Part shown: positions 7,977 to 54,627 of the stretch, piece after piece
Numbering within the stretch: the stretch's first letter is position 1
Layout of the letters: every line of letters starts with the position of its first letter
Assembly: GCA_964398225.1 (NCBI GenBank)
Contig: CAYNLY010000001.1
Coordinates: 16,975-80,974, forward strand
Source: an uncultured Zetaproteobacteria bacterium
GTDB taxonomy: Bacteria; Pseudomonadota; Zetaproteobacteria; Mariprofundales; Mariprofundaceae
Reading direction: 5' to 3'
Length of the DNA: 64,000 nucleotides
Translations under genes and position numbers: made by a program
The notes under the pieces: model-generated
Database searches by the model: none
Told to the model about the DNA's origin: nothing
Seen by the model: only the letters and a program-made list of their open reading frames with translations

Positions 7977-9926
7977 ATGTCCGCTTCATCCCTCAACGAG
8001 GCGCAGTATCGCGCGGTCTTCCATCGTGGCGGGCCGCTCTTGGTGCTGGCGGGCGCGGGCTCGGGCAAGACGCGCGTGATCACCGAGCGGATTGCCGCCT
8101 TGATCGAGCGTGACGTGCCGCCCGATGCGATCACGGCGGTGACCTTCACGAACAAGGCGGCGCGCGAGATGCGGGAGCGGCTCCGGGCACGCCTTGGAGA
8201 GGTGGCGCGCAGGCTCAGGATCTGCACCTTCCACGCGCTGGGGCTGATGATCGTGCGCGAGCATGCGGACCTCGTCGGCAGGCGGCCGAACCTGACGGTG
8301 TTCGGGCCGGCCGAGCAGCGGGGGGCGATGCGGAGCGTGCTAGCGGAGCTGGGCCTTGCCGCCGACGCGGATGCGGTCGCCCGGATGCTGGAGGCGGTCT
8401 CGCGGCGGAAAAACGGTCTGCCGGTGCCGGAACGCGCGAGGGTGGATGAGGTCCGCACGCGCTACGACCGGCTGCTCACCGAAATGAACGCGGTGGATTT
8501 CGACGATCTGATGCTGCTGCCGATCCGGCTGCTCGAGGAGCATGACGAGGTCCGGGCGCTGTGGCGGATGCGGTGCCGTCACTTCCTCGTGGACGAGTAT
8601 CAGGATTCCAGCCGCGTGCAGTACGAGCTGATTCGCTGTCTGGTGCCGCCCGACGGCAACCTGACCGTGGTTGGTGACGACGATCAGTCGATCTACGGCT
8701 GGCGGGGCGCGGAAATCCGGAACCTTTTTGCGCTTGAGCGGGACTATCCGGGACTGACCGTGATCCGGCTCGAAGAAAACTACCGCTCCACCGAAGCCAT
8801 CCTGACTGCGGCGAACAGCCTGATCGAGCACAACGGCGAACGGCTTGGCAAGCGCCTTCGCTCGAATCTGGGGCCCGGCAGGCCGGTCCGCATCTGGGAG
8901 TGTGCGGACGGGGACGAGGAAGCCCGCCGTGTGGCGGCCGACATCCGCGCCCTGCATGCCGGCGGCCGGGCCCGCTGGGATGACTTCTGCGTGCTCTATC
9001 GGGCCTCCCATCAGTCGCGGCCGGTGGAGCGAGCGCTGCGCGAGGCCGGGATTCCCTACCATGTGAGCGGCGGGGTGTCGTTCTTCGACCGGGCCGAGAT
9101 CCAGGATGTTCTCGCCTATCTGCGGCTCATCGCCAACTTCGCCGACGATCTGGCCTTCATGCGCGCCATCGCCCGGCCACGGCGCGGCATCGGCGCACGG
9201 GCTCTGGAAGCGCTGGGCGCTCAGGCCCGGGAGCTTCGGTGTTCGCTGCTGGAAGCCTGTTTGCACGAGGGGCTCGATCACCGCCAGGCCGAAAAGCTCC
9301 GCTCGTTCGGAGAGCTGATCGTCGCGCTCGAGCACCGCTTTCTGCACGGCGAGCCGGACGATGCCTTCGACGCGTTGCTGGCCATGTCGGGCCTAGAGCA
9401 GGCGATCCGCGACGACGCCGCCGATCCTGCCGAGGCCGAGCGCCGGATGGGCAACGTCTTGGATCTGCGCCGGTGGTGGCTGGCCCATGCCCGCGACGGT
9501 GGGGATCTCACCGGTTTTGTGCAGCAGCTCCATCTTCGGAGCGACCGGGACGAGGAGGCGCCGGACGGGCGGGTGCGGCTGATGACCGTGCATGCGGCCA
9601 AAGGGCTGGAGTTCGATCATGTCTACCTGATCGGCATGGAGGACGGCCTGTTTCCGCATCGCAACGCGCTGGACGAGGGACGCATCGAGGAGGAACGCCG
9701 CCTGATGTATGTCGCAATGACCCGGGCCCGGTACCGGCTGACGCTGTCGCTCGCCCGGGTGCGGCGGCGCTACGGCAAGGCCGAGGCGAGCCGGCCATCG
9801 CCGTTTCTGGCCGAGATTGACGATTCGGTGGTGCTCTGGTCGGACCGGGACTCCGGCAGCGAGGCCGCCGCGGAGGAAGCGGAGGAACACATCGAGGCGA
9901 TTCGCCGGATGCTCGGCCTGGCCTGA
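7977..9926 (+). CDS. rep: ATP-dependent DNA helicase, Rep-like (UvrD/Rep family)
   Basis: Walker A AGAGSGKTRV, FTNKAAREM, VDEYQDS, VVGDDDQSIYGWRGA, YRS, and LMTVHAAKGLEFDHVYLIGMEDGLFPH...EEERRLMYVAMTRA. The length (649 aa) and C-terminus resemble Rep more than UvrD. Confidence 0.8.
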   Translation: MSASSLNEAQYRAVFHRGGPLLVLAGAGSGKTRVITERIAALIERDVPPDAITAVTFTNKAAREMRERLRARLGEVARRLRICTFHALGLMIVREHADLVGRRPNLTVFGPAEQRGAMRSVLAELGLAADADAVARMLEAVSRRKNGLPVPERARVDEVRTRYDRLLTEMNAVDFDDLMLLPIRLLEEHDEVRALWRMRCRHFLVDEYQDSSRVQYELIRCLVPPDGNLTVVGDDDQSIYGWRGAEIRNLFALERDYPGLTVIRLEENYRSTEAILTAANSLIEHNGERLGKRLRSNLGPGRPVRIWECADGDEEARRVAADIRALHAGGRARWDDFCVLYRASHQSRPVERALREAGIPYHVSGGVSFFDRAEIQDVLAYLRLIANFADDLAFMRAIARPRRGIGARALEALGAQARELRCSLLEACLHEGLDHRQAEKLRSFGELIVALEHRFLHGEPDDAFDALLAMSGLEQAIRDDAADPAEAERRMGNVLDLRRWWLAHARDGGDLTGFVQQLHLRSDRDEEAPDGRVRLMTVHAAKGLEFDHVYLIGMEDGLFPHRNALDEGRIEEERRLMYVAMTRARYRLTLSLARVRRRYGKAEASRPSPFLAEIDDSVVLWSDRDSGSEAAAEEAEEHIEAIRRMLGLA

Positions 9927-9939
9927 AGGGGTAAGGGCC

Positions 9940-11583
9940 TCAGTCCTCGGAGAAGTCGAAGCCTCGGCTGGTCTTGAGTTCTTCGGCCCGGACGATTTCG
10001 CACAGGCTGTAGTTGGGGCCGGAGCGGATCACGCGTTGCACCTTGAAATGGGCGCTCTTGCCCTCGTGCGAAACGACGAAGGCCATGTTGCGGAAAATCC
10101 TCGGATCCGGGAACAGGGCCAGATGATGCTTTTTCCCGGGCTTGATCAGGATGGGCCAGCTGCGGTGCGCGGTCAGATCGTCGCCGCCGCCGATCAGCGC
10201 GCCCTTGACCAGCTTGTAGCGCTCGCGGATGAACTCGATGCCCATGCGCTGTTCCCCGGGCTTCGGTTCCTTGATCCAGCGGATGAAGCCGAGCATCGGT
10301 TCGCCTTCGTGCGGAATCCAGCTCAGCCCCACAAGCGTGCCCACGCCGGTCGGGAAGCCCTCGAAATGGACGCGCTCCAGTCCCACGCCGTGGTTGCTCA
10401 GGTTCACGACCGACCAGGCCTGTTCGCTCTGGGCCTTGCTCGGCGCATATTCGTAGTCGCTCATGACCAGCGCCGTATAGGCTTCCTTGATCGCCTTGGC
10501 CGCATCCCATTCGAGAATCACGCGGGCGCCGGCCGTGTCCTTGCGCTCGGCCTTGCGCTGCTTCTCGCGCAGCGCGTCGAGAATCGCATTGCCGCCGGTG
10601 AGCGTCGTATAAAGGGATTCCTCGGTGTGCAGATCGCGCTTCTGGGCGTCGATGTTCAGCAGTACGTTCTCAACGCGGTTGACCGCGGTCACGATGCGGT
10701 CGACGAACTCGTCCAGCGGGATCACGATCGCATCATAGATCAGCGGATCCGGGAGGGATTCCATGACTTCGGCCGGCGCGTTGGGCTTGAGCGTGTTCGT
10801 GACCAGAATGGTCGAATCCTTGATCTCGGGCCGCTTGCTGCCTTTGCGCAGAAACATCGGGCGGAGCACGCCGACATGGTGCTGCAACTCTTCCCAGCAC
10901 ATCTTCTGCTCGGCGTGCGATTTGCCGTACATGTCCATGCAGCGCAGCAGTTCGTGGTTGGCCACGGCCTTCTGGACGCGCTCCCGTTCGGCCAGGGCGT
11001 CCTCGCCGAGCACGGGCACGACGCTCAGGCCCAGCCGGGCCAGATCGAACACCTGCCGGGTGGCAATCACGGCCGGTGCCTGATACTGCTCGAGCGAGAT
11101 ACGCAGCAGCTTGACCGCAAGCTCGATGGCATTGGCGACCATGTCGACCAGCACGCGGTAATAGCTCGGCTGACTGCGCGCGGCCTTCTGGACCATCTCG
11201 ATGCCGATCTTGTGCGCGTTCAGAACGGCGGCGGTCATCTCGCCGTCGAACAGCTCGAGCTCGCGCTCGAAGCGGTTGAGCACCTTGAGCCGGAAATGCA
11301 GCGGAATCAGCGGGTTCGCATTGAGCCGGGCCAGGTAGTTCTTCATCTTCTTGCGCAGCAGCTCGGTTTCGGCCTCGGAAGCGCCGGCGATGTAGCGGGC
11401 CAGATGCTTCTCGATGTCGACGAACGGCAGCGTCAGGGCATCGGTCAGAAGCTCGGGCTTGCCGAGTTCAAGCTTCGACGGATGCAGCCTGAGATCGGTG
11501 TCCAGCTCGAAGTTGACCGTTTCCAGCAGCTTCTTCGCAGATTCGTCCGGAATCCCGTTGCTCACGTGTTTCACATCCTCCAT
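9940..11583 (-). CDS. hypothetical protein with a PilZ-like C-terminal beta-barrel (candidate c-di-GMP receptor)
   Basis: 547 aa. The N-terminal part (about 330 aa) is helical. The C-terminus has RKAER ... VVNLSNHGVGLERV ... GFIRWIKEPKPGEQRMGIEFI, which resembles the PilZ RxxxR / (D/N)xSxxG motifs and fold. Composition is normal, unlike the antisense ORF 9817-11610. Confidence 0.55.
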   Translation of the reverse strand: MEDVKHVSNGIPDESAKKLLETVNFELDTDLRLHPSKLELGKPELLTDALTLPFVDIEKHLARYIAGASEAETELLRKKMKNYLARLNANPLIPLHFRLKVLNRFERELELFDGEMTAAVLNAHKIGIEMVQKAARSQPSYYRVLVDMVANAIELAVKLLRISLEQYQAPAVIATRQVFDLARLGLSVVPVLGEDALAERERVQKAVANHELLRCMDMYGKSHAEQKMCWEELQHHVGVLRPMFLRKGSKRPEIKDSTILVTNTLKPNAPAEVMESLPDPLIYDAIVIPLDEFVDRIVTAVNRVENVLLNIDAQKRDLHTEESLYTTLTGGNAILDALREKQRKAERKDTAGARVILEWDAAKAIKEAYTALVMSDYEYAPSKAQSEQAWSVVNLSNHGVGLERVHFEGFPTGVGTLVGLSWIPHEGEPMLGFIRWIKEPKPGEQRMGIEFIRERYKLVKGALIGGGDDLTAHRSWPILIKPGKKHHLALFPDPRIFRNMAFVVSHEGKSAHFKVQRVIRSGPNYSLCEIVRAEELKTSRGFDFSED

Positions 11584-43236: not shown

Positions 43237-43270
43237 AAAAAAGGCGCCCACAGGGCGCCTTTGTTGTTTG
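43237..43270. terminator. bidirectional intrinsic terminator between convergent ridA and rpmB
   Basis: A-run, then stem AAGGCGCCC (43241-43249) / GGGCGCCTT (43253-43261) with a 3-nt loop, then a T-rich tail TTGTTGTTTG. Confidence 0.8.
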
Positions 43271-43599: not shown

Positions 43600-43648
43600 T
43601 GCCTTCCTGCAAGACCGGCAATGGAGCCGTGACCAAGGAGCAAGGAAC

Positions 43649-44242
43649 ATGAACGAACAGGTGGATTGCTACACCAGCAAGGAGGAGCAGGCCCGCCGCC
43701 AGCGGGGCTTTACGCTGATCGAACTCGTGATCGTGATCGCGATCATCGGCATTCTGGCCGCGTTTATCGCGCCGCGCGGCGGCGAAGTCTTCAAGGATGC
43801 GCAGATTGCCTCGGTCTCGGAGGCGGTTCATTCCCTGAAGACAGCCGTGGCACAGTACGTGGTGAAGAACAAGCAGCTGCCTCCGGCAACCAATCCCGAG
43901 GCTGCACTGATTCAGCAGAAATACCTCGATGGCGCCGCCACCTCGACCGTGGCCGTCGGAACAAGTGCAACGCTTGTCGAAACGGCGGGCGGTGGCACGC
44001 CGCCGGCTGCTGGCGCATTTGATCTCGATGGTGATGGAACCGTTGATACGAAGGCGACCGAACAGGTCATCGAACTTCAGATTGCCGGTGTGCCGGGAAC
44101 GGATGCCTATGCCATCAGCCAGAGTCTCGATGGAACTCTGACGGCTGCGAGCACGACGGTTGCGGATACGAAGGGGCGCGTGACCTATGCAGCCCCGACA
44201 GGGGGGACCACGACCGTCCATGTCTACGTCGACAGCCTGTAA
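43649..44242 (+). CDS. type IV pilin / pseudopilin with class III signal peptide (major subunit candidate)
   Basis: AAGGAG lies upstream of ATG 43649. The 20-aa leader MNEQVDCYTSKEEQARRQRG is followed by FTLIELVIVIAIIGILAA (Phe+1, Glu+5). The mature protein is 177 aa with no Cys and contains a DLDGDGTVD loop. Confidence 0.85.
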   Translation: MNEQVDCYTSKEEQARRQRGFTLIELVIVIAIIGILAAFIAPRGGEVFKDAQIASVSEAVHSLKTAVAQYVVKNKQLPPATNPEAALIQQKYLDGAATSTVAVGTSATLVETAGGGTPPAAGAFDLDGDGTVDTKATEQVIELQIAGVPGTDAYAISQSLDGTLTAASTTVADTKGRVTYAAPTGGTTTVHVYVDSL

Positions 44243-44315: not shown

Positions 44316-45998
44316 GTGATGGGCGCAAACGCAGTGCAGAACCTGGGCAAGATGCGGCTGGGCGACCGGCTGATCAAGCTCGGCCTGATCGACGAGGAAT
44401 GCCTGAAACTTGCGCTGCGCAAGCAGAAGAAGGACGGCATCCTGCTCGGCGAGGCGCTTGTCGAGCTGGGCTTCATCGACGAGGACGTCGTCACCAAGGT
44501 GCTGGCCTCGGACATCGACATCGACTTCGTCGATCTTCGCAATCTCGACGTGGATCCCGAGGCAATCGCCAAGGTTCCTCTGGCTATTGCGCGCAAATAT
44601 CACGTGCTTCCCTATGCGGTCGACGACTCCACCATATATGTGGCCATCGACGATCCCCTGAATCTCGTTCCGCTGGACATCATCTGGAAGCAGACGGGGC
44701 TCCGGGTTCAGCCGGCGGTGGCGCCGCTTGCCGACATCGAGGCCGCGATCGAACGCCATTATTCCTCGGTCGAAACCATCGACGACATCATCGACGAGAT
44801 CATCGAGGGCAAGATCGACGAGCAGCAGCTCGAGGCCCCGGTGGTCCGGCTGCTGGACAAGGTCATCGCGCACGCTGTCCGCCACCATGCCACGGACGTT
44901 CACATCGAGCCGGCGGAGAAAACGCTCGGCATCCGGATGCGCGTGGACGGCCTTTTGCAGGATGTCTGCCTGCTTCCCGTCAATGTATTGGCGCCCCTGA
45001 CATCCCGTGTCAAGATTTTGGCTAAACTGGATCTGTCCGAACGGCGTCTTCCCCAGGACGGCAGCTTCGCCACCCGGATTGGCCATCGCCAGGTCGAGGT
45101 GCGGGTGTCAACCTTGCCAACCATCTATGGCGAGAAGTCGGTGCTCCGGATCCTCGACCGGAGTTCGGTCGAGATGACGCTTGCCGGCATCGAGCTGCCG
45201 TATGCGATGCGGGAGCATCCGGAACAGCGGCTGCATCTGAACGATCCCTACGGGATGGTGCTCGTGACCGGTCCTACGGGCTCCGGCAAGACCACGACGC
45301 TGTATTCGATGCTCAACGCGGTGAAATCGGACGAAAAGGCGATCTTCACGATCGAGGATCCGGTCGAATACCGGATCAAGGGCCTGCAGCAGGTGTCGGT
45401 GCGCGAGGAGATCGGATTCACGTTTTCCAATGTGCTCCGCTCCATCCTCCGGCAGGATCCCGACATCATCATGGTGGGCGAAATCCGCGACACCGACACA
45501 GCCTCACTGGCCGTGCAGGCCGCGCTCACCGGCCATCTCGTGCTTTCGACGCTGCACACGAACAACGCGATCGAGACGGTCTTCCGCCTGATCGAAATGG
45601 GTGTTGAGCCCTACCTGATTCCGCCGTCCCTGCACGGCGTGCTCGCCCAGAGGCTGGTCCGGCGGCTGTGCCCGCACTGCCGCAAGCCGATGCCCGAGCC
45701 GTTCGTCCGCTCGGTGGTCGAGGCGCACGGGCTTGATCCCGATCGCGAATGGGTGTTCTGGCAGCCGGTCGGATGCCGGAACTGCGTGAACGGTTATGCC
45801 GGACGGATCGCGATTTTCGAATGGCTCGACCTGGACGAAAGGTTCCATGAGGTGATTCATCACCGGACGACGCTCGCCGAGCTCGAGCACGCCGCGCTCG
45901 AGGCGGGCTACCGGCCGATGGTCTTCGACGGCCTGGAAAAGGCCGCCGAGGGGCTGACGACCGTCAATGAGGTGCTGCGGGTGACCCGCCATGCCTGA
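44316..45998 (+). CDS. GspE/PilB/MshE-family assembly ATPase with N-terminal MshEN-type domain
   Basis: Walker A GPTGSGKTTT, Asp box, Walker B, and tetracysteine CPHC...CRNC. The N-terminus has RLGDRLIKLGLIDEECLKLALRKQ followed by LLGEALVELGFIDEDVVTKVLASD. The start is GTG 44316 or ATG 44319. Confidence 0.92.
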   Translation: MMGANAVQNLGKMRLGDRLIKLGLIDEECLKLALRKQKKDGILLGEALVELGFIDEDVVTKVLASDIDIDFVDLRNLDVDPEAIAKVPLAIARKYHVLPYAVDDSTIYVAIDDPLNLVPLDIIWKQTGLRVQPAVAPLADIEAAIERHYSSVETIDDIIDEIIEGKIDEQQLEAPVVRLLDKVIAHAVRHHATDVHIEPAEKTLGIRMRVDGLLQDVCLLPVNVLAPLTSRVKILAKLDLSERRLPQDGSFATRIGHRQVEVRVSTLPTIYGEKSVLRILDRSSVEMTLAGIELPYAMREHPEQRLHLNDPYGMVLVTGPTGSGKTTTLYSMLNAVKSDEKAIFTIEDPVEYRIKGLQQVSVREEIGFTFSNVLRSILRQDPDIIMVGEIRDTDTASLAVQAALTGHLVLSTLHTNNAIETVFRLIEMGVEPYLIPPSLHGVLAQRLVRRLCPHCRKPMPEPFVRSVVEAHGLDPDREWVFWQPVGCRNCVNGYAGRIAIFEWLDLDERFHEVIHHRTTLAELEHAALEAGYRPMVFDGLEKAAEGLTTVNEVLRVTRHA

Positions 45999-47205
45999 GT
46001 TTTCCTATGTCGCGGTCAGTCCCTCGGGGGAGCTCGAGCGCGGGCGGCTGAATCTGCCCTCGGAGCGCATTCTGGAGCATACGCTGGCCGAGCGGGGGCT
46101 GCAGCTGATCTCGAGCCGGCCGGCCTGGTCCTTGAAGCCCGGATTCGGCTCCCGGCGCATTACGCGGCGGGACATCATCGAGATGCTGATTCCCTGGCTT
46201 TCGATGGAGAAGGCGGGCGTGCCTCTGCTCGATGCGATCCGCGACTCGCTCGAGGAAATCGAGAATCCCGCGCTGCGCGACGTGGCCCGGAGCATCGCGG
46301 CCGATCTTGAGGCCGGCGAAAGCCTGGTGGATGCCGCGGCGAAGCATCCGAAGGTGTTCGACGAGCTCAGCCTCGGCATTCTGCGCGCCGGCGTGGAATC
46401 CGGGCGCCTGGATGCCTCCTTCGAGTTCCTGATCCGGCACCACACCTGGCTCGAGAAAATGAAAAAGAACGTGATGCAGCTGATGCTGGAGCCGGGGATT
46501 CTGCTCGTCGTGATCGTGCTGTTCATCATCCTGATGTTCAGCTTTGTCGTGCCCCAGATCATGGAAACGGTGGCGATGTTCAATGTTCCGATGCCCTGGC
46601 CCACGCGGATGATGATGCACCTGAATGCGTTCTTCCGTGCCTATGGGCTCTGGGTGCTCGCGGGACTGGGCCTTCTGTTTCTGGCGCTGCCCGCGATGTA
46701 TCTGAAATGGGAAGCGTTCCGCGAGCGGGTGGATGCGTTCAAGCTCCGGATGCCTTTCTTCGGCCCGCTGAACCGAATGATCGTCGGCTCCCGCTTCGCG
46801 CATCACATGTCGGCGCTGTTCCGCTCCGGCATCAATCTCGTGGACGGTCTGGAGATCGCCGCCAAGGCGGTGGGCAATCGCGTGGCGGAAAAGGAGATTC
46901 TGGAAGCGCGGGATCGCGTCGTGCAGGGGCAGACGGTCTACGAGGCCATGAGCGCAACCACCGTGCTCAGCCCGATGGTGCTGCGCATGCTCAAGGTTGG
47001 CGAGGACTCCGGAAACATCGACGGCACGCTCGATTACGTCTCCGAATACTACGACGAGGAAGTGCCACGCCGGATTGCGCGGGCGTTCACGCTGCTCACC
47101 CCCGCGATCACGATGGTGCTTGGTGTCGTCGTGCTGTTCATCGCGCTCGCGGTGTTCATGCCGATGCTGGACATGATCGACAAGGTCCACTCGATGCGCC
47201 ACTGA
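45991..47205 (+). CDS. GspF/PilC/MshG-family inner-membrane platform protein
   Basis: 404 aa with two T2SSF repeats and three TM segments. The start overlaps the ATPase stop by 8 nt. Confidence 0.88.
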   Translation: MPEFSYVAVSPSGELERGRLNLPSERILEHTLAERGLQLISSRPAWSLKPGFGSRRITRRDIIEMLIPWLSMEKAGVPLLDAIRDSLEEIENPALRDVARSIAADLEAGESLVDAAAKHPKVFDELSLGILRAGVESGRLDASFEFLIRHHTWLEKMKKNVMQLMLEPGILLVVIVLFIILMFSFVVPQIMETVAMFNVPMPWPTRMMMHLNAFFRAYGLWVLAGLGLLFLALPAMYLKWEAFRERVDAFKLRMPFFGPLNRMIVGSRFAHHMSALFRSGINLVDGLEIAAKAVGNRVAEKEILEARDRVVQGQTVYEAMSATTVLSPMVLRMLKVGEDSGNIDGTLDYVSEYYDEEVPRRIARAFTLLTPAITMVLGVVVLFIALAVFMPMLDMIDKVHSMRH

Positions 47206-47223: not shown

Positions 47224-48381
47224 ATGAAGCAGAGCAAGGAACGGGGATTTTCGATGATCGGCATCGTCATCGCGCTGGCGGTGATCGGGATGCTTCTGGC
47301 CGCGGTGATGCCGAAAACCCTGAAAAGCCGTTTTCTTGACATCCAGCTCGAAGAGGTGGCGCGTCTGGGCGCATTGCACGAGGCGCTGACCAGCTACGTG
47401 ATCGCCAATCACCTTGTGCCCGGTTCGGCCACATGGGCCCAGGCGATCAGCCAGTATGCCAATGAATCGCCGCAGCAGATCGTCGTCTCCGGGATGAATC
47501 AGCAGGTGATCTATCTGTATCCGGACGACTTCATCGCCGCCGGCAACACGCTGCCCTACGATCAGAAGGCCAATGCGCAGGCGGGCAACTTTCTGACCGC
47601 GGCCCCCGTGGATCCGCGCATCATGATCGTCTCCAACCTTGGGCAGACGGCGCTGGCCACGACTTCGGGCGCGATGCCGGCGGCCACGTTCGACGCGGTC
47701 TGGAACCAGACCGGAACCTTTCCCGCCGAGCTCACCGAGGGCGATACGCTGAAGATCGAACGGGTGAATCTCAGCGGCCTGTTCGAGCCGGTGACGCTGA
47801 ACAACAACGATCCGGCAACGAGCGCAAGCTTTGCCGTGGACGGCCAGCCCAATCCGCCGGCCACGCTGGCCGCGGCCTCGAGCATGACGCTGCACCTGAT
47901 CCGTTCCACCCGTCTCGATCTGTACGACGGCGCCGGCGCGATCTACTACCGGCACACGGTCACCGGACCCGATTCGTTCGTGTTCAGCGGCGGTGTCTGG
48001 GGCGGCACGCTGGGCGGCGCCGGCGGTGGCGGCACCGGCGGGGGTGGCGGCACCGGCGGTTCCGGAGTGGGCCCGATCTTCGACCAGACCCAGGGCGGCA
48101 GGCTCGTCAACTGGAATCCCGATCCGGCCTGCAGTCCGACCGGAACGACCTACAACCTGACGGTCCAGAACAACACGGCCAAGGACACCTACTGGGTTTA
48201 TGCCGGTGTGGGCGGTGTGCCCACCACGCTGGGCAAGGTGAAGAACGGCAAGACCGGCACTTTCCCGGTGGCCGAATGCGAGCTCTACCTCGTCGTACCC
48301 GAGGTGAAGCAGAACGGTTCCCAGCCCGTCGTCTACGCCGGCTACATGCCGCACAACAATCTGACCGTGACGGCCCCCTGA
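47224..48381 (+). CDS. large minor pilin-like protein (prepilin-type N-terminus lacking Glu5, poly-Gly linker, C-terminal Cys-pair domain)
   Basis: The leader MKQSKERG is followed by FSMIGIVIALAVIGMLLAAV, with Gly at +5 rather than Glu. The linker is GGTLGGAGGGGTGGGGGTGGSGVG. The C-terminal module (about 105 aa) has two Cys residues (ACSPTG...VAECELY). Confidence 0.7.
   Translation: MKQSKERGFSMIGIVIALAVIGMLLAAVMPKTLKSRFLDIQLEEVARLGALHEALTSYVIANHLVPGSATWAQAISQYANESPQQIVVSGMNQQVIYLYPDDFIAAGNTLPYDQKANAQAGNFLTAAPVDPRIMIVSNLGQTALATTSGAMPAATFDAVWNQTGTFPAELTEGDTLKIERVNLSGLFEPVTLNNNDPATSASFAVDGQPNPPATLAAASSMTLHLIRSTRLDLYDGAGAIYYRHTVTGPDSFVFSGGVWGGTLGGAGGGGTGGGGGTGGSGVGPIFDQTQGGRLVNWNPDPACSPTGTTYNLTVQNNTAKDTYWVYAGVGGVPTTLGKVKNGKTGTFPVAECELYLVVPEVKQNGSQPVVYAGYMPHNNLTVTAP
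48025..48060 (+). repeat. 18-bp tandem duplication inside the Gly-linker coding region
   Basis: GGTGGCGGCACCGGCGGG (48025-42) is followed directly by GGTGGCGGCACCGGCGGT (48043-60), 17/18 identical. Each copy encodes GGGTGG. Confidence 0.85.
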
Positions 48382-49706
48382 TGGACCGGCTGCACCTGCT
48401 CTGGATCAACGACCAGGTCACGCTGTTCACCGACAGCGGGGAAGTCCGCACGGACTCGGGCTGGTCGGAGCCGGATGCGGAGCGCCTGGGCCTTGCCATC
48501 CGGCAACTGGGCTTTAAGGGCAAAAGCGCCGTCGTCGTATACGAGGGCGAATACATCTCCCATCACGAGCTCGAAGTGCCTCCGCTCGACGATGCGATGA
48601 CGCTTGCGCTGATCCAGAGGCGCATGCCCACGGAGCTTCAGGGCGCGGATCCTGCCGGCAGGGTGGGATTCATGCGCGCGGCCGACAATCGGCGCGTGCT
48701 GATCGAGGTGCTGGATTCCCGTTTCTACGATGCGCTCGTCGAGGCGTTCCGCGTCAACGGCATGACGCTGGATCTGGTATGCGGTCTGACACCCGTGCTG
48801 GCCCGAATGGCGGCGGGATCGGGACACGATTCGCCGATGCTGGTCGAGTTCGCCGACCGTGATGCGGGCATGAACTTCATGCTTTACTACCATGCCGAAA
48901 AGCGCAGGCCCGCGCTGTTCCGTGTCGCCCCTCTGGCCTGGGATCCGGAGCACCTCGAGCAGGACATGCGGCGCAGCATCCAGCTTGGACGGCAGCTGTT
49001 TGCGGGGCGGGAGCCGGAGGTGTTTCTCGTCGGCGATCCGGAGTTTGTCACCGAAGGCGTCACCCATCTGGGCGAAGCGGAGGCGCTGCTGGATGCGGTG
49101 GCCAGACTTCCGGTGCAGAGCACGGCCAACCTGGTGCCGCCCGAGGATCGGGGCATGGCGAAGCAGCGCCTGCGCATGTATCTGGCGCTGGCCCTGCTGG
49201 TGCCGTTCGTGCTCGGCAGTCTGGCGGTGCATATCGTGCTCGACCACAAGATCGGCGAATACCGCGCGGCGCTGTCCGACATCCGCGAACTGATGCACGA
49301 GCGCGAACGCTATCTGGAGCGCATCGGCGATTACGAACGGCGCAACCGCTTCATCCGGGATGCCGGGCGGACCGACATCCTGCCGGCTGTCGTTCTGGCC
49401 AATGTCGGCAACGATCTTCCCTGGGATTTCACGCTGCGCCGTTTCGAGTGCGGGCGAGCGGGCCCGGTCGGGCGGATGGACGGCGAGGTTTCCTTCCGGC
49501 TCGGTGGCGAGGTCGATACCGACCCCGTGCATGCACCCGAGCTGCTGCGCCGGCTCGAGGCCAGATTCGGGCAGCCGCCCTACAACGGCCGCGTGATCCA
49601 TTCCTGGCGCGAATACTGGCTGAAGGCCATCCAGACATGGTCCAACGCGCGCAATGGGGGCGGGGCGGGTATTCCCTTCGAGATCGAGGTGGCCCTCCAT
49701 GAATAG
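48381..49706 (+). CDS. bitopic assembly protein, PilM-PilN fusion-like (MshI/GspL-like architecture)
   Basis: ATG 48381 overlaps the previous stop (TGATG). The protein has a cytoplasmic N-domain of about 270 aa, a single TM segment (MYLALALLVPFVLGSLAVHIVL), a coiled-coil and a periplasmic domain of about 120 aa. The call rests on architecture and gene position, not on a diagnostic motif. Confidence 0.55.
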   Translation: MDRLHLLWINDQVTLFTDSGEVRTDSGWSEPDAERLGLAIRQLGFKGKSAVVVYEGEYISHHELEVPPLDDAMTLALIQRRMPTELQGADPAGRVGFMRAADNRRVLIEVLDSRFYDALVEAFRVNGMTLDLVCGLTPVLARMAAGSGHDSPMLVEFADRDAGMNFMLYYHAEKRRPALFRVAPLAWDPEHLEQDMRRSIQLGRQLFAGREPEVFLVGDPEFVTEGVTHLGEAEALLDAVARLPVQSTANLVPPEDRGMAKQRLRMYLALALLVPFVLGSLAVHIVLDHKIGEYRAALSDIRELMHERERYLERIGDYERRNRFIRDAGRTDILPAVVLANVGNDLPWDFTLRRFECGRAGPVGRMDGEVSFRLGGEVDTDPVHAPELLRRLEARFGQPPYNGRVIHSWREYWLKAIQTWSNARNGGGAGIPFEIEVALHE

Positions 49707-50313
49707 GACGGCCCTGCAGCTGTTCGCCCGGCTCAAGCGCCGGCGCCGGCTGATCGGGCGCCTGCTCGTGGGCGGAACGCTCGTGCTGGCCGTGCTGCTT
49801 GCGCTGGACATCTACTTCCGCCTGATTCCCGAAACCCGCGCGATGACCCGCGCCATTCAGGACGGCAGCCAGACCGTGGCCGATCTGGACCTGATCAAGA
49901 GGCGGGCGATCGAGCTGGAACGGGCCTTCGACAGGCAGGCATTCGAGCGCGCGGAGCGCCGCGTGTTCGACGATGTGGATTCCGTATCCGCATTCATCAA
50001 TGCACTGACCGAGTCATTGAAGTCAGCGGGCTTCTTCGTCAATACGCATGTGGCGCCGCTTCGGGACGAATCCTTCGATGGCGAGCAGCGATACGGGCGT
50101 CCGATCCAGCTGATCGCGCTCGATCTGACGATTCGCAATCCGAGGGTGCGGCCCGACACGCACGAACGGCTTCTCGAAGTGCTGCGCCGGATTCCGGACC
50201 TCGGGCGCAAGGCGGATCTGGTTTCCCTGCGCATCGAGGGCAGCGGCGCGGACCTTGCTTCGGCGTCGATGCGATTCCTTCTCTGGAGCAGTTTCCGGTA
50301 TGAACCGAGATAG
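49699..50313 (+). CDS. bitopic assembly protein, PilO/MshJ/GspM-like
   Basis: The ATG overlaps the upstream gene by 8 nt. The protein has a short basic N-terminus, one TM segment (LLVGGTLVLAVLLALDIYF), a coiled-coil and a periplasmic domain. The call is by architecture and position. Confidence 0.5.
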   Translation: MNRTALQLFARLKRRRRLIGRLLVGGTLVLAVLLALDIYFRLIPETRAMTRAIQDGSQTVADLDLIKRRAIELERAFDRQAFERAERRVFDDVDSVSAFINALTESLKSAGFFVNTHVAPLRDESFDGEQRYGRPIQLIALDLTIRNPRVRPDTHERLLEVLRRIPDLGRKADLVSLRIEGSGADLASASMRFLLWSSFRYEPR

Positions 50314-50752
50314 GCTGAAGCAGGCGCTGGCGGGGGTTCTCGTGATCGCACTGATTGCGGTTCTTGCGGTGCGTTTTTCCGGGTCCGCACCCAAGCGCGC
50401 CGTGCCACAAGCTTCGATTGCCGGCGGGAGCGCCCCTGCCGCGGCCGGCCCCACCGGCAAGGCCGGGGCGGTCGGCCACCGGCACGCCCTGCACATGCCA
50501 GAGCAGTTGCTGCGCAATCCGTTCGCCCCTCGATCGGGAAGCGGCAGGGCCGTTGCGGTTCCCGACTTCCGGCGGCTGCATCTGGACATGGTGGCGGTGG
50601 GGCCCAACCGGAAACAGACCTTCGCCCGCATCAACGGCCGCATCGTCCATGTGGGCGGCGAAGTCGGAGGCTATCGGGTGCTTGCGATCCGCAGCCGCGG
50701 CGTCTGGGTGCAGCGCGCCGGCGAAAAGAAACGTTTCATTCCAATCTTCTGA
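50300..50752 (+). CDS. PilP/MshK/GspC-HR-like secretin-interacting protein
   Basis: The ATG overlaps the upstream gene by 14 nt. The protein has an N-terminal TM segment, an Ala/Pro/Gly linker and a C-terminal beta domain (ARINGRIVHVGGEVGGYRVLAIRSRGVWVQRAG) that resembles the GspC HR / PilP fold motif. Confidence 0.55.
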   Translation: MNRDRLKQALAGVLVIALIAVLAVRFSGSAPKRAVPQASIAGGSAPAAAGPTGKAGAVGHRHALHMPEQLLRNPFAPRSGSGRAVAVPDFRRLHLDMVAVGPNRKQTFARINGRIVHVGGEVGGYRVLAIRSRGVWVQRAGEKKRFIPIF

Positions 50753-50766
50753 ATCAGGGGAGTGCC

Positions 50767-52344
50767 ATGAACATCCGAATCCTTCACCTGAGCATCGCCA
50801 TTCTGGCCCTGGGGCTGATGGCCGGATGCGCAAAGAAACCGCCGAGCCCCAAAGCGGGTCCGACCGATCTCAAGCTGAGCACGCATCTGGACGAGGCAAT
50901 GGAGAAGCTCAAGCAGGACTCCGCGAAGGCGCTGCTGGCGATGGCCGACGTCCGGCGTCAGCACGAGATGGAGATGCGTTCCCGGAAAACCCGCGTGGAG
51001 ATCGACGACGACCGGCTTTATTCGCTTTCGGTCCGCCGGATGCGGATCAAGACGGCGCTGGCGACCTTCGCCCGCAAGTACGGTCTGAACATCGTGCCGG
51101 ACCCGGACGTGACCGGAAGGGTGACGGTGTCCTTCTCGAATCTCACGCTCTCGCAGGCGATGAACGCACTCCTGGACGCTCAGGGCTACTATTTCGAGAA
51201 ACAGGGCGACATCATCCGCGTCCGCAACCTCGAAAGCCGGATCTTCGAGATCAACTATCCCCGGTTCGTGCGCAGCGGCGAGGGCAACGTCGAAACGAGC
51301 ATGACCTCGTCCTCGACAACCGGCGCCGGCGCAACGGGAGCGGGCGGCGGCGCGACCGCTTCGCAGGCTGCCGGCACAGGTTCCGCCGGTACCGGCGGCG
51401 GGGGGATGTCCTCCTCGAGCGTTTCGATCCGGAGCAGCGACACGATCGACTTCTGGGGCGAGCTTGAATCGAACCTGAAGGCGCTGCTTGCGGGCGACGA
51501 CGAGCGCAGCCATTACACGATCAACCGCCTGTCCGGCATCGTCAGCGTCACCGCGCGTCACAGGACGATGGAGCGCATCGCCCGATATCTGGACTGGGTG
51601 AACGATTCCGTGCACCGGCAGGTCGTGATCACGGCGCAGATCATCGAGGTCAGCCGCAACGACACCGACAAGTTCGCGGTGGACTGGGAACGGGTCACGA
51701 ACCGCCTGTCGCTGACCTCGGCCGTGGCTTCGGTGACGCCCTTTGGCGTCGTGACCGGCGCGCCCGCCTCGCCGACGCTGCTCGGTCAGTATCAGAACAA
51801 CAACCGGACCTTCAAGAACATCATCGAGGCGCTCAAGGAGCAGGGCGACCTGCGCATCGTCTCCAAGCCCCAGGTGCGCACGATCAACAACCAGCCCGCG
51901 ATCATCAAGGTCGGCACCGACCGGACCTTTTTCCGTGTCGAGAGCGTGACGGACACGACGACGGCGGGCTCGACGACGACGACCAACGACATCCCCCAGA
52001 CGATCACCGTCGGCCTGGTCATGAGCATCACGCCGCAGATTTCCGCCGACGGAAAGGTGACGCTGGACATTTCCCCGGTCATCACCGCACTCAGCGGCGA
52101 GGAGGTGTCCGCGAACGGATCCAAGGCGCCGATCCTGGACATCAAGCAGGTCTCGTCGGTGGTCTCGGTCCGCTCCGGTCAGCCGGTCATCATCGGGGGG
52201 CTGATCAAGCACGAAAACTCCCGCGCGGACCGGAAGGTTCCGCTGCTCGGCGATATCCCGCTGATCGGGGGCCTGTTCCGCGGCACGCACCGGATCAAGC
52301 AGTCCAGCGAGCTGGTGATCTTCATTACGCCGTACGTGATCTGA
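50767..52344 (+). CDS. secretin (GspD/PilQ superfamily), lipoprotein, MshL-like
   Basis: Lipobox LGLMAG-C (signal peptide MNIRILHLSIAILALGLMAGC), an N-domain, and the canonical C-terminal secretin block (VPLLGDIPLIGGLFR...ELVIFITPYVI). A Thr/Gly/Ala/Ser-rich insert (SSSTTGAGATGAGGGATASQAAGTGSAGTGGGGMSSSS) is also present. Confidence 0.9.
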   Translation: MNIRILHLSIAILALGLMAGCAKKPPSPKAGPTDLKLSTHLDEAMEKLKQDSAKALLAMADVRRQHEMEMRSRKTRVEIDDDRLYSLSVRRMRIKTALATFARKYGLNIVPDPDVTGRVTVSFSNLTLSQAMNALLDAQGYYFEKQGDIIRVRNLESRIFEINYPRFVRSGEGNVETSMTSSSTTGAGATGAGGGATASQAAGTGSAGTGGGGMSSSSVSIRSSDTIDFWGELESNLKALLAGDDERSHYTINRLSGIVSVTARHRTMERIARYLDWVNDSVHRQVVITAQIIEVSRNDTDKFAVDWERVTNRLSLTSAVASVTPFGVVTGAPASPTLLGQYQNNNRTFKNIIEALKEQGDLRIVSKPQVRTINNQPAIIKVGTDRTFFRVESVTDTTTAGSTTTTNDIPQTITVGLVMSITPQISADGKVTLDISPVITALSGEEVSANGSKAPILDIKQVSSVVSVRSGQPVIIGGLIKHENSRADRKVPLLGDIPLIGGLFRGTHRIKQSSELVIFITPYVI

Positions 52345-52349
52345 TCCGC

Positions 52350-52374
52350 AAGCCGGATCGGGATCAGCCGGCTT
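52350..52374. terminator. possible weak hairpin between convergent secretin and crp-family genes
   Basis: AAGCCGG (52350-56) pairs with CCGGCTT (52368-74) across an 11-nt loop. It overlaps the 3' end of the minus-strand gene and has no clear U-tract. Confidence 0.25.
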
Positions 52375-53032
52375 CTTCCAGGAAGGCCTGCGCGCGTTCG
52401 CGGTTGATCGTGTGGGTCCGGTCCTCGTTGGCGCGGACGACGCCGAGCGTGGCCAGCTGGCGCATGGCGCGAGTCACGGTTTCCCGCTGGCAGCTCAGCA
52501 TGTGGGCAAGTTCCGAATGGCTGGGCAGGCGCAGCGTCAGCGCGCGTTCCGCGTCCTTCCACTCGGGCAGGCTGAGCAGGTAGCGGCAGAGCTTGGCTGC
52601 GATCGTCGGCTGGCTCAGCCGGCAGACGACCTCGTGCGAGCGCAGGTAGCGGTCCAGAAACAGCGCCGTGATCCGGCGATGGAAACCGGGATCCCGCATG
52701 CGCTCATGGAAGCGTTCGGGCGCAATCCGGAGCAGGCGCGAAGGCGTGCGCGCGAGGATGCTGGCCGTTCGGGAAGGCCGGCCGAAGGCGCCGATTTCAC
52801 CGACCAGATCGCCCGGCCCGAGCTCGTAGAGCAGGGTTTCGTGGCCGCCGGGCGTGACCAGGCGGACGTCGAGTTTTCCTTCCAGCACGAGGTAGCAGGT
52901 GCCCGCGTGTTCCTCGCCCTCAAAAAGAACGAAGCGCCCCTTCGGCACCTCGATCTCGGGGCAGCCGGGAAAATCCTCGGCGGAGAACTTCGGCTCCGGC
53001 AGGGAGGAACGGGAGGAGGTCGCATTGGCCAT
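52364..53032 (-). CDS. Crp/Fnr family transcriptional regulator (cNMP-binding domain + HTH)
   Basis: Beta-roll cNMP domain (FEGEEHAGTCYLVLEGKL...GPGDLVGEIGAFG...RTASILA) and C-terminal HTH (SHSELAHMLSCQRETVTRAMRQL). The Fnr-type N-terminal Cys cluster is absent. Confidence 0.85.
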   Translation of the reverse strand: MANATSSRSSLPEPKFSAEDFPGCPEIEVPKGRFVLFEGEEHAGTCYLVLEGKLDVRLVTPGGHETLLYELGPGDLVGEIGAFGRPSRTASILARTPSRLLRIAPERFHERMRDPGFHRRITALFLDRYLRSHEVVCRLSQPTIAAKLCRYLLSLPEWKDAERALTLRLPSHSELAHMLSCQRETVTRAMRQLATLGVVRANEDRTHTINRERAQAFLEEAG

Positions 53033-53060: not shown

Positions 53061-53993
53061 TCACGAAGGTCGCCGGCGCCAGAACGCGGCCAGCATTGGA
53101 CCCGAGAGGTTGTGCCAGAGGCTGAACAGCGCGCCGGCGAGTGCCGCTTCAGGAGAAAAATGCGCCACCGCCAGCGCCACCGCGAGCCCCGAGTTCTGCA
53201 TCCCGACCTCGATGGCCACGGTCCGGCTGCGCGTGACATCCAGCCCCGCGCGGCGCGCTCCGAAATACCCCGCGCCCAGCCCGGCGAGATTCAGCATGAC
53301 GACCGCCGCGGCCGTCCAGGGCGCGAGCGCGAGCAGCTGGCCGTGGTTGAGGCCCGCGATCACGCCGACGATCCAGGCGATCACGAGCACGGCCACAAGC
53401 GGCAACAGATGATCGCTCAGCCAGGAAGGAATGCGCACCATCCGGCGGATCAGTGCGCCCGCCAGCACCGGAAGCAGGACGATCTTGGCCACCGAAAGCA
53501 TCAATGCGCCGGCATCCACCGGCAGTCGGCTTCCCGCCAGCAGCCAGACCCACAGCGGGGTCATGATCGGCGCGGCCAGGGTCGAGGCCGTGGTCATCGC
53601 CACCGAAAGCGCCACGTCCCCGCGGGCAAGCCAGGTCACGACGTTCGAGGCGGTGCCCCCCGGGCAGGCGCCGACCAGAATCACGCCCAGCGCGATCTCG
53701 GGCGGCAGATCGAGGGCTAGCGTCAACAGCCATGCGGCAAGCGGCATGACAAGAAACTGCAGGCAGAAGCCGACCACCACCGGCCGGCCCGCATCCTTGA
53801 GTCCGCGCCACTGGCGCTCCTCGATGCCCAGCCCCATGGCCAGCATCACCGCGGCGAGGAGCCACGGGATCCAGGGCTTTCCGGCCGATGCCGTATCCGG
53901 AAAGGCCAGACCCCAGACCGCTCCGAGCGCGACCCAGAGAGCCAGCGGCCGGGAAAGAAGCGCAAGCAGCCGGCGCGCCGATTCAGCCGCCAA
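53061..53993 (-). CDS. bile acid:sodium symporter (BASS) family transporter
   Basis: Polytopic 310-aa protein with BASS blocks (LAAVMLAMGLGI, GVILVGACPGGTASNVVTWLARGDVALSV, GMQNSGLAVALA). Confidence 0.82.
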   Translation of the reverse strand: MAAESARRLLALLSRPLALWVALGAVWGLAFPDTASAGKPWIPWLLAAVMLAMGLGIEERQWRGLKDAGRPVVVGFCLQFLVMPLAAWLLTLALDLPPEIALGVILVGACPGGTASNVVTWLARGDVALSVAMTTASTLAAPIMTPLWVWLLAGSRLPVDAGALMLSVAKIVLLPVLAGALIRRMVRIPSWLSDHLLPLVAVLVIAWIVGVIAGLNHGQLLALAPWTAAAVVMLNLAGLGAGYFGARRAGLDVTRSRTVAIEVGMQNSGLAVALAVAHFSPEAALAGALFSLWHNLSGPMLAAFWRRRPS

Positions 53994-54627
53994 CGGCGAC
54001 CCCCGCCTGATTTGCCAGTTGCGCCAGCTTGGCGGTCATGCGCCTCCGGCGCAGAAGGAAGTCCCACTGCCGGCCGCCAGCCTGATGCCAATGGTGTGCC
54101 GCCCGGATCCCGCTCAGCAGCAAGGCGCGGATCATCGCCTGGATTTCGCTTCGGGCCAGATGCTCGCGCCGGCCGCGAACGACGATACGCGGCGTGGTCC
54201 GGCTCAGGCTTTCGCCGTACAGCTGCGCGATCGCGGCAACCACGCTCGGATGCGCGGCCTCCCCGAAATATTCGCGCTGGCGTTCGATCCGGTTCATGCC
54301 CTCCGCCAGTTGCCCGCGCAGCGCCGCATCCCGCCGGATTTTCCGGGAAAGGCTCATCATCCCGCCGATACAGCCCATGATCCGCCGGAAGGAGGGCTGC
54401 TCCCGCCCTTCGAGCAGTGCGCGTGCGAGGTCCAGACCCCGGGCGAGATTGCGCGCATCGGGCAACGGATCACGGGAAAACAGGCTTTCCAGCAGTGGCG
54501 CGACATCGGCCGGATCCGCCCCGCCCGTGCGCGCAAGGCCGTCCACGCAGGAGGCGGCCTGGACCATCGCGGCCAGCGCAAGCATGCGCCGCTCGAAGCG
54601 GGTTGGAGATTTTGCTGTCTCGGACAT
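53983..54627 (-). CDS. hflD: high-frequency-of-lysogenization protein HflD homolog
   Basis: Start trimmed to ATG 54627. Collinear with E. coli HflD, including the LLSGIRAAHHWHQAGG block (E. coli has LLAGIRAAVLWHQVGG). Confidence 0.75.
   Translation of the reverse strand: MSETAKSPTRFERRMLALAAMVQAASCVDGLARTGGADPADVAPLLESLFSRDPLPDARNLARGLDLARALLEGREQPSFRRIMGCIGGMMSLSRKIRRDAALRGQLAEGMNRIERQREYFGEAAHPSVVAAIAQLYGESLSRTTPRIVVRGRREHLARSEIQAMIRALLLSGIRAAHHWHQAGGRQWDFLLRRRRMTAKLAQLANQAGVAVGG

Follow-up and report, generated by a model that had tools for sequence, protein, structure and literature searches.

The window (the whole stretch of DNA analysed, 64 kb in length) was found to contain a conserved eight-gene type IV filament cassette, the fourth gene of which, the target gene of this analysis, is predicted to encode a protein of 385 amino acids (Table 1). 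The cassette is ordered as a GspG-like pilin, an MshE-type ATPase, a GspF platform protein, the target, three bitopic membrane proteins and an MshL-like secretin, and a terminator-like hairpin upstream of the major pilin gene (43240-43262) marks the start of the operon. The ATG of the target gene is the only possible start codon, because an in-frame stop lies 14 codons ahead of the Gly of the cleavage motif; it is located 18 nt downstream of the stop codon of the GspF gene and has a Shine-Dalgarno sequence (GGGAG) 6 nt upstream. The GC3 of the gene (0.84) is similar to that of the neighbouring genes, and a dN/dS of approximately 0.2 was obtained in comparison with two orthologues.

Table 1. 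Genes of the filament cassette and segments of the target protein, with positions given on the window.
Feature	Position	Strand	Evidence
Putative major (pseudo)pilin, RQRG/FTLIE (slash, predicted cleavage site)	43646..44242	+	N_methyl 39.8 bits, TIGR02532 36.8 bits, weak GspG-like match
Extension ATPase with MshEN/c-di-GMP-binding N-domain	44316..45998	+	T2SSE 429 bits, MshEN 79 bits
GspF/PilC-type platform protein	45991..47205	+	T2SSF 166.8 bits, two repeats; three hydrophobic segments
Target gene, 385-aa modular minor (pseudo)pilin (likely), unnamed family	47224..48381	+	ORF, Shine-Dalgarno, GC3, homologues, synteny, purifying selection
Leader of target, 8 residues, MKQSKERG, Gly(-1) last	47224..47247	+	Sequence; prepilin peptidase cleavage predicted after 47247
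Alpha1 helix of target, residues 9-62	47248..47409	+	AF2 helix, hydrophobic segment, column counts, PDB profile match
Globular body of target, family-defining, residues 63-259	47410..48000	+	AF2 pLDDT; body HMM
Gly/Thr linker of target, residues 260-283, 24 aa	48001..48072	+	Sequence; AF2 disorder
C-terminal module of target, residues 284-385, ~102 aa	48073..48378	+	AF2 7-stranded beta-sandwich
orf5, 441-aa bitopic protein, TM 264-289	48381..49706	+	Topology, conserved position
~204-aa protein, N-terminal TM, putatively PilO/GspM/MshJ-like	49699..50313	+	Topology, synteny
orf7, ~150-aa, N-terminal TM, putatively PilP/GspC/MshK-like	50300..50752	+	Weak GspC_delta match (21 bits), topology, synteny
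Secretin, MshL-like	50767..52344	+	Secretin 153.5 bits, Secretin_N_2, STN

The N-terminus of the target reads MKQSKERG followed by FSMIGIVIALAVIGMLLAAV, with Gly at position -1, Phe at +1 and Gly at +5 (codon GGC, 47260-47262), so that the eight-residue leader and FSMIG start given in the preliminary description were borne out by the ORF sequence. A short hydrophilic leader ending in Gly and the hydrophobic stretch that follows it are features of a class III signal; Glu at mature position 5, which is usual in the pilin class, is absent. Proteins of the pilin class have a long alpha1 of about 53 residues that is broken by Pro22. In the AF2 model of the target there is an N-terminal helix of 56 residues (7-62), the hydrophobic segment covers residues 6-34, and alpha1, the N-half of which is hydrophobic, bears Gly at +5, Pro at +22 and Glu at +36 (E44). 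The Pfam N_methyl model (PF07963) was matched barely over its gathering score (21.5 vs 21.2 bits), and NCBIfam TIGR02532 gave no match to the target protein. A profile built from 68 family members matched alpha1 of solved type IV pilins in the PDB (E = 9e-14 to 1e-6) over 66 residues. Among the relatives listed, position -1 is G in 109/152 and A in 33/152, while F at +1 and P at +22 are each found in 131/152 and E44 is conserved in 149/152. Judged by these sequence features the target is a genuine prepilin-type protein, and the missing Glu5 does not exclude it from the pilin class, since cap subunits without Glu5 are known.

The ATPase scored 52.2 against NF053729 (cut-off 38) and its N-domain carries the MshEN c-di-GMP motif; its PilB and GspE equivalog scores were under the respective cut-offs. 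The secretin may be a lipoprotein, judging from its N-terminal signal and the Cys in …LMAGC…. The start of orf5 overlaps the stop codon of the target gene (TGATG), and its position is conserved in six homologous loci (L001, L002, L004, L009, L010 and L011); the protein had no Pfam or PDB match and, judged purely by topology and position, may be a GspL/MshI-like (PilM-PilN-like) assembly component. No Pfam or NCBIfam family match was obtained for the protein that follows it. The three bitopic proteins (orf5-7) have no class III pilin motif, and the only two ORFs in the 64-kb window with a class III signal are the major pilin and the target, which is therefore the single minor pilin in both cassette and window, as had been proposed; further minor pilins could be encoded beyond the window. 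No prepilin peptidase gene (Peptidase_A24) was found in the window, and one adjoins the homologous cassette in both L009 and L011. The position of the target gene between the platform and alignment-complex genes, with tight or overlapping junctions, is conserved in Zetaproteobacteria, Gammaproteobacteria and Verrucomicrobiota-type contigs; two tandem paralogues of the target are present in the Verrucomicrobiota-type cassettes, and a TPR gene follows the secretin in L004 only.

The body of the target was modelled as an alpha/beta part (residues 63-175) followed by a beta-sandwich (176-259), with pLDDT values of 82-94 over residues 110-260, and the body HMM matched all of the 152 representatives listed. 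Sequence searches of Pfam, NCBIfam and PDB gave no match for the body beyond alpha1, and pilin globular domains were not among the top Foldseek matches to the full model; a pilin fold for this part is suggested by the N-terminal helix and the context only. The linker, GGTLGGAGGGGTGGGGGTGGSGVG, is exactly 24 amino acids in length and predicted to be disordered (pLDDT 23-42), and part of it is encoded by an 18-bp tandem repeat (48021-48059). In one metagenome run the assembly breaks at the linker. The poly-Gly hinge of the preliminary description is thus present as a 24-residue Gly/Thr linker, but its composition is not conserved among homologues, the linkers of other members being Ser/Thr/Asn-rich.

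The C-terminal module, when modelled by itself, gave a pLDDT of 81.7 and a pTM of 0.75. The only cysteines of the target are C303 (48130-48132) and C352 (48277-48279), both within the last 102 residues, in agreement with the earlier observation that the module holds the protein's only two. Both are nearly invariant among relatives bearing the module, G8, F9, G13, C303 and C352 are invariant in close homologues of the target, and a (F/G)YMP motif near the end of the module is conserved; the modelled beta-sandwich is probably disulfide-stabilised. The module is the fastest-evolving folded part of the protein, yet is under purifying selection (dN/dS 0.25-0.32). It had been described as unrecognised and continued to be so: no Pfam or PDB sequence relative was found, and its profile matched only Ig light chains in the PDB, insignificantly (E >= 0.014). 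Foldseek searches of PDB and BFVD with the full model and with the module returned generic beta-sandwiches with TM values of about 0.5 at best, including the pVHL beta domain, a transthyretin-like protein and phage tail-fibre collars, which justify no functional inference. The AF2 model upheld the oversized and modular architecture itself, in which the linker is predicted to be disordered and the C-terminal beta-sandwich stands apart.

An exhaustive HMMER search showed that the first ~260 amino acids of the target define an unnamed family of 517 cluster representatives, without a Pfam or NCBIfam model; word-indexed searches had returned 5-8 relatives and suggested an ultra-rare protein, a view overturned by this result. 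Members are labelled 'type II secretion system protein', 'PulG' or 'hypothetical' in their sources, and the family is an unnamed yet widespread metagenomic one of known design and not a new kind of thing. All column and tail counts were drawn from the 150-152 representatives listed, of the 517. The full architecture of the target is uncommon: the C-terminal module is carried by 21 of the 152 representatives listed, a different tail by 98 and no tail by about 22, relatives without the module including the 266-amino-acid L004 protein and P0108. The module therefore does recur in relatives, a point raised in the preliminary description, but is optional; within the family it appears from these sequences to be swappable, and among the 152 representatives listed it was seen only on a target-type pilin body.

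At position +5, Glu was found in 139/150 of the representatives listed and Gly in 11/150, and Glu5 is also kept in relatives with the same C-terminal module as the target. The loss of Glu5 thus failed to hold as a family property, and on this alignment Gly5 is a lineage-specific derivative; because 139/150 relatives have Glu5, a tip role for the whole family is not arguable from this residue. The Gly5 bearers belong mainly to one Zetaproteobacteria-type clade. In a quick NJ tree they group together, not cleanly, and two further Gly5 members (P0074 and P0127) are in distant lineages, such that Gly5 may have arisen once or repeatedly, both being compatible with the tree.

A number of known systems were compared with the target. 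Modular pilins have been described, CofB/TcpB being single large tip pilins (PMC8179133) which are tip-located and initiate assembly (PMC8179133, PMC10191384), and in T4bP single minor pilins replace HIJK (PMC10191384). CofB/TcpB (type IVb; ETEC CFA/III and V. cholerae TCP) resemble the target in that one oversized minor pilin stands for a four-pilin initiation complex. The likeness is one of design only (a pilin part, a flexible linker, beta-rich C-terminal domain(s) and the position of sole minor pilin in the cluster), and CofB/TcpB were not found in the PDB profile search nor among the top 50 Foldseek matches. CofB/TcpB are trimeric according to the literature, which was counted as a difference from the target, and their machinery is of T4b type, whereas the target cassette is MshE/MshL/GspF-like with GspL/M/C-like partners; the target also differs in having Gly for Glu5 and a C-terminal module that is a single beta-sandwich of about 100 amino acids. 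TcpB retains a functional Glu5.

The modular pilins PilB (vWA) and PilC (lectin) of Streptococcus sanguinis (Raynaud et al. 2021, PMC8179133) share with the target a pilin carrier, a linker and a C-terminal effector module, as well as a predicted tip location and the swapping of the module among relatives. In contrast to these, the effector module of the target has no database signature, its carrier is much larger (~250 amino acids, with its own beta-sandwich and forming its own family) and its system is diderm with a secretin. A modular pilin in the sense of Raynaud et al. combines an N-terminal pilin module with a further, defined domain that is not specific to type IV filaments; the target has a swappable extra module that folds separately in the model. 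Vibrio MSHA (T4eP) shares the MshEN c-di-GMP-binding N-domain of the ATPase, a secretin for which MshL is the best match, and a system-specific protein of unknown function directly after the platform gene, the Vibrio gene order being mshE-mshG-mshF. MshF is itself described as 'of unknown function' (PMC9815625). However, MshM, MshN and MshB/C/D/O/P/Q are absent from the 64-kb window, the secretin is just below the MshL cut-off (245.5 vs 250.2 bits) and the gene order is different.

Pseudopilins of the GspK/PilK/PilX type likewise have no Glu5 and exceed other pilins in size; their presumed place is the very top of the initiation complex (PMC10191384, PMC8179133). The target is not a homologue of GspK: T2SSK/GspK models did not match it at E <= 0.01 and were not among the leading families for 68 relatives, and there are no GspH/I/J partners. 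In GspK an alpha-helical extra domain interrupts the pilin sheet (PMC8179133), whereas the extra domains of the target are appended and, in the AF2 model, all-beta sandwiches; moreover, there are no GspI/J partners beside the target and most members of its family have Glu5. Membership of GspK, GspH/I/J, PilV/W/X, ComG and Verru_Chthon cassettes was considered and rejected, with no match beyond the N-terminal helix. The idea of a single fusion protein in place of the four-protein tip complex was not supported, since searches of Pfam, NCBIfam and PDB showed no resemblance of any part to GspH/I/J/K or to PilV/W/X/FimU; functional replacement of the complex without fusion is plausible by analogy, CofB/TcpB being the precedent.

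Taken with the operon context, it is fairly likely that the target serves as a modular minor pilin in the compact, MSH/T2SS-like type IV filament machine that its own eight-gene operon specifies, and probably as the starter or tip subunit of this pilus/secretion machine. On the best reading, which is by analogy with CofB/TcpB or S. sanguinis PilB, it would prime and cap the filament and display a binding module. The protein would be inserted into the inner membrane via its N-terminal hydrophobic helix and its leader removed after Gly8 by a prepilin peptidase presumably encoded elsewhere in the genome. With no other minor pilin in the cassette, it would then seed filament assembly on the GspF platform and finish at the apex, as in CofB/TcpB and the PilHIJK/GspHIJK initiation complexes, with major pilins added beneath it by the c-di-GMP-responsive ATPase.

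Tip complexes are capped by a subunit without Glu5, and the apex of the filament is where such a subunit would be expected (PMC10191384). In the Zetaproteobacteria-type clade Glu5 would have been replaced by Gly and, as a consequence, the salt bridge from Glu5 of the target to the N-terminal amine of the subunit above would be missing; established filament structures suggest that this is tolerated only with nothing above, making the protein a dedicated single-copy cap. The body would bear the extra beta-sandwich, and the disordered tether of ~24 residues would hold out the small C-terminal beta-sandwich as a putative exchangeable ligand-binding or adhesive effector module, although a role as an adhesin is purely inferential. 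Because most relatives keep Glu5, members of the family could also take up places along the filament or form homo-oligomers.

The output of the machine may be a surface pilus or a periplasmic pseudopilus, both being compatible with equivalog scores that are all below their cut-offs, and a different, though unlikely, reading is that the target is the tip of the pseudopilus of a T2SS-like exporter, where it would cap a short periplasmic filament in the manner of GspK-I-J, touch the secretin or a substrate and push cargo out, in place of serving as a surface adhesin. GspG was the best NCBIfam model for the major pilin, the L004 orthologue of which passes the gathering score of Pfam T2SSG (21.5 vs 21), GspF was the best model for the platform, orf7 matched GspC weakly and the cassette has no PilT-type retraction ATPase. 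Every T2SS equivalog score was, however, far under its cut-off, the ATPase has an MshE-like N-domain and the secretin is MshL-like, and the cassette contains no GspH/I/J/K and no candidate substrate gene. A variable, tethered C-terminal module is more usual in displayed adhesins, and the naming of relatives as 'type II secretion system protein' or 'PulG', which would favour an exporter, reflects generic automatic labels.

It is improbable that the target instead decorates the shaft as a low-abundance pilin along the filament, its linker letting the C-terminal module project sideways. Such a location is not excludable for modular pilins with a sufficiently flexible linker (PMC8179133), and the prevalence of Glu5 in the family, which would make docking beneath other subunits possible, and the tandem paralogues of the Verrucomicrobiota-type cassettes are in keeping with it; against this, Gly5 abolishes the docking salt bridge in the target, a 250-amino-acid body with an extra beta-sandwich probably clashes with the adjacent 178-amino-acid major pilins, and, the target being the sole minor pilin, assembly would still have to be primed by something. 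Very improbable is a protein that is no filament subunit at all and serves as an uncleaved bitopic inner-membrane scaffold or gate, such as a platform-secretin bridge, with the N-terminus as an anchor only. The marginal N_methyl score, the missing Glu5, a window without a peptidase gene and the location of the gene among membrane assembly genes, away from the pilin gene, would fit this reading, but conservation of G/A(-1), F(+1), charged E(+5) and P(+22) throughout hundreds of divergent sequences is not a property of plain transmembrane anchors, the pilin motif is lacking in the bitopic neighbours (orf5-7), and the match of the family profile to pilin alpha1 extends over 66 residues.

Beyond the minor pilin reading of the target itself, it is conceivable, if doubtful, that the cassette represents an undescribed type IV filament subtype of Zetaproteobacteria, some Gammaproteobacteria and Verrucomicrobiota, in which one large pilin of this family (or two in tandem) replaces both an initiation complex of four minor pilins and a PilY1-type adhesin and carries interchangeable C-terminal effector modules. 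If this were true, the Gly5 clade would document how a minor pilin able to polymerise evolved into an obligate cap present in single copy. The priming of filaments and their gain of binding functions are poorly understood outside a few model systems, and in this family one major and one large minor pilin make up a minimal, self-contained system. The presence of both Glu5 and Gly5 on the same scaffold makes the Glu5 'cap' rule testable, and the three tail states (disulfide beta-sandwich, other tail and none) do likewise for the carrier/effector idea. A definition of the family would also allow better annotation of several hundred metagenomic protein clusters.

Those relatives with the C-terminal module that were traceable originate from metagenomes of hot springs and hydrothermal vents and from MAGs of Zetaproteobacteria type, an iron-oxidiser lineage; attachment to surfaces or minerals would therefore be of ecological relevance, which is speculation. 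A scan of metagenome contigs gave a single short locus. Among sequencing runs, the target sequence was found only in DNA runs from hot-spring metagenomes.

The target open reading frame (385 aa) is the fourth of eight tightly spaced, co-directional genes, with a terminator-like hairpin 5' of the cassette (43240-43262). Its start codon lies 18 nt downstream of the platform gene's stop and 6 nt downstream of a Shine-Dalgarno sequence (GGGAG); at the 3' end, its stop codon and the start codon of the following gene overlap (TGATG). An in-frame stop was found 14 codons 5' of the cleavage-site glycine, making the ATG at 47224 the sole possible start and hence the leader MKQSKERG. Each sequence feature named in the preliminary description was confirmed: the 8-aa leader, a predicted mature N-terminus FSMIG with glycine at +5 (GGC, 47260-47262), a 24-residue Gly/Thr linker (GGTLGGAGGGGTGGGGGTGGSGVG, residues 260-283) and only two cysteines (C303 and C352). 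GC3 (0.84) matched that of the adjacent genes, and dN/dS against two orthologues (~0.2 overall, 0.25-0.32 in the C-terminal module) indicates purifying selection on all parts of the protein.

Cassette genes (window coordinates) and AlphaFold2-predicted regions of the target (residues)
Feature	Position	Strand	Details
GspG-like pilin	43646-44242	+	canonical signal RQRG/FTLIE (slash, cleavage site)
Extension ATPase, MshEN c-di-GMP-binding N-domain	44316-45998	+	NF053729, 52.2 bits (cut-off 38)
GspF/PilC platform	45991-47205	+	family match
Target	47224-48381	+	385 aa
Three bitopic membrane proteins	48381-50752	+	topologies fit GspL/MshI-, PilO/GspM- and PilP/GspC-like partners; weak GspC match
Secretin	50767-52344	+	best model MshL, 245.5 bits (below cut-off 250.2)
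Helix	residues 7-62		pLDDT 50-83, minimum in hydrophobic N-half
Alpha/beta region	residues 63-175		pLDDT ~50-60 for 80-110, 82-89 from 110
Beta-sandwich	residues 176-259		pLDDT 82-94
Disordered segment	residues 263-290		pLDDT 23-42
Second beta-sandwich	residues 291-385		pLDDT ~59-90

The PilB, GspE, GspF and MshL 'equivalog' scores of the cassette proteins all fell under their cut-offs, so the machine is not a textbook T4aP, T2SS or MSHA system. As the ATPase has an MshEN domain and passes the NCBIfam c-di-GMP-binding motif model, c-di-GMP probably activates the machine, as it does Vibrio MshE. At its N-terminus the secretin has a signal sequence that ends in a lipobox-like motif (…LGLMAGC…), and it may therefore be a lipoprotein secretin with no need of a pilotin. 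Class III signals were identified in two ORFs only within the 64-kb window, the GspG-like pilin and the target, and no prepilin peptidase was detected there (tblastn, E ≤ 0.01); a Peptidase_A24 gene adjoins the homologous cassettes on contigs L009 (8403-9152) and L011 (13019-13834, minus strand).

Word-indexed searches with the target returned just 5-8 relatives, and when 1.84 billion cluster representatives were scanned exhaustively with HMMER, 517 matched at E ≤ 1e-3, 246 of them at E ≤ 1e-10. The first ~260 residues (the body) were present in all 152 representatives listed, which were aligned to the body HMM for residue counts. A classical pilin N-terminus was observed across them, with glycine (109) or alanine (33) at -1, phenylalanine at +1 (131), proline at +22 (131) and glutamate at +36 (149, with aspartate in the other three). 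The +36 glutamate, residue 44 of the target (47353-47355), lies in the alpha1 helix and might be a family-specific contact between subunits; Q114, W160 and R180 of the target are also nearly invariant in the family alignment. Compared with solved structures, a 68-member profile matched alpha1 of geopilin, PilA, GspG, PilE and MshA (E = 9e-14 to 1e-6), exclusively over profile positions 5-70. Beyond the N-terminal helix the family is without a Pfam or NCBIfam model, leaving both GspK homology and a 'fusion' of four tip pilins, as initially proposed, unsupported. Public labels of the relatives are 'type II secretion system protein', 'PulG', 'prepilin-type ... domain-containing protein' or 'hypothetical'. 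Given the pilin N-terminus, the alpha1 match and the lack of a model elsewhere, this is, as judged from sequence, a genuine, unnamed pilin family tied to the cassette.

AlphaFold2 was run on six sequences (mean pLDDT 72.9). Modelled alone, the C-terminal module formed a seven-stranded sandwich (pLDDT 81.7, pTM 0.75), for which Foldseek returned generic sandwiches only: the pVHL beta domain (TM ~0.5, E ~1e-3), transthyretin-like hydrolase, and phage tail-fibre collar or carboxypeptidase-regulatory-like domains. Its sequence had no match in Pfam or the PDB. Among the 152 representatives listed, 21 carry this module, with a close to invariant cysteine pair and a conserved (F/G)YMP motif close to the C-terminus; 98 carry another, mutually homologous tail of ~100 aa without the pair, and ~22 end after the body. 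The linker is low-complexity in every member and Gly-rich in some only. In the window, part of its coding sequence (within 48013-48060) is an 18-bp tandem repeat (48021-48059, 2.2 copies, 95% match), precisely where the assembly of one metagenome run fragments into short alternative unitigs, and the single difference from a near-identical JGI protein (P0001) is G276S, inside the linker; this hints at microheterogeneity of linker sequence or length within the population. In P0023 (500 aa) the body and other tail precede a stretch of poly-Gly (residues 358-375), after which comes an additional C-terminal domain, so Gly-rich connectors are reused for module stacking in the family.

At +5, glutamate was found in 139 of the representatives listed and glycine, its sole replacement, in 11: the window protein, P0002-P0008, P0018 and the distant singletons P0074 and P0127. 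Glutamate is kept in P0009-P0017, P0019, P0020 and P0036, all with the target's module type, in representatives with the other tail, and in the body-only Gammaproteobacteria homologue of contig L004 (GFTLIE). The Gly5 proteins grouped together in a rough NJ tree, but not as a clean clade. On these alignments Gly5 is a derived rather than an ancestral state, and the earlier argument for a tip position from missing Glu5 thus applies to the clade of the target only, not to the rest of the family.

Growth of type IV filaments proceeds from tip to base and is primed by minor pilins, which stay at the tip. Since Glu5 forms a pair with the N-terminal amine of the next subunit up, absence of this residue is characteristic of the topmost subunit (PMC10191384, PMC8179133). 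In T4b systems one large minor pilin (CofB/TcpB), consisting of pilin, linker and beta domains, takes the place of the four-pilin complex, and 'modular pilins' onto which effector modules are grafted occur widely (PMC10191384, PMC8179133). The target resembles both: it belongs to the pilin class, is oversized, carries a tethered, exchangeable module and is the only minor pilin in its cassette. As it matches this design and Glu5 is lost in its clade, we favour, with some reserve, an initiator or cap subunit displaying a binding module. Membership of the pilin class with processing by prepilin peptidase is very likely, and a role as minor subunit of the cassette machine is likely; location at the tip of the filament, which may be either a surface pilus or a periplasmic pseudopilus, is only slightly favoured, and adhesion or ligand binding by the module is a tentative suggestion. 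Modular minor pilins and single large initiator pilins are already known as a design. What is new is a family with neither a model nor a characterised member, the link of this family to a compact MSH/T2SS-like cassette in several phyla, a natural Glu5-to-Gly variant and an unannotated putative-disulfide beta-sandwich.

The cassette gene order is kept in two Zetaproteobacteria MAG contigs (L001, L002), a Mariprofundaceae MAG (L006, the contig of P0004), a Gammaproteobacteria MAG (L004), a hydrothermal-vent contig (L011), L009, L010 and a JGI metagenome contig (L012). L012 carries the non-Cys tail type: two tandem family paralogues of 427 and 369 aa (8711-11110), each with Glu5, separate the platform gene from the GspL-like gene, in place of a single copy. 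This contig is possibly of Verrucomicrobiota origin; one member of P0025, a sister cluster of its tail type, is labelled Verrucomicrobiota. The closest relatives of the window cassette are in MAGs labelled Zetaproteobacteria or Mariprofundaceae, and the window sequence (GC 66.9%) was present in three hot-spring metagenome runs. Genes for a Crp/Fnr-type regulator (cNMP_binding and HTH_Crp_2) and DUF489 flank the window cassette (52364-53032 and 53983-54600, both minus strand), and such a pair also lies directly upstream of the ATPase gene on L007, the contig of P0006 (1625-2976), where no pilin gene was found 5' of the ATPase gene; the regulator may be linked to the cassette.
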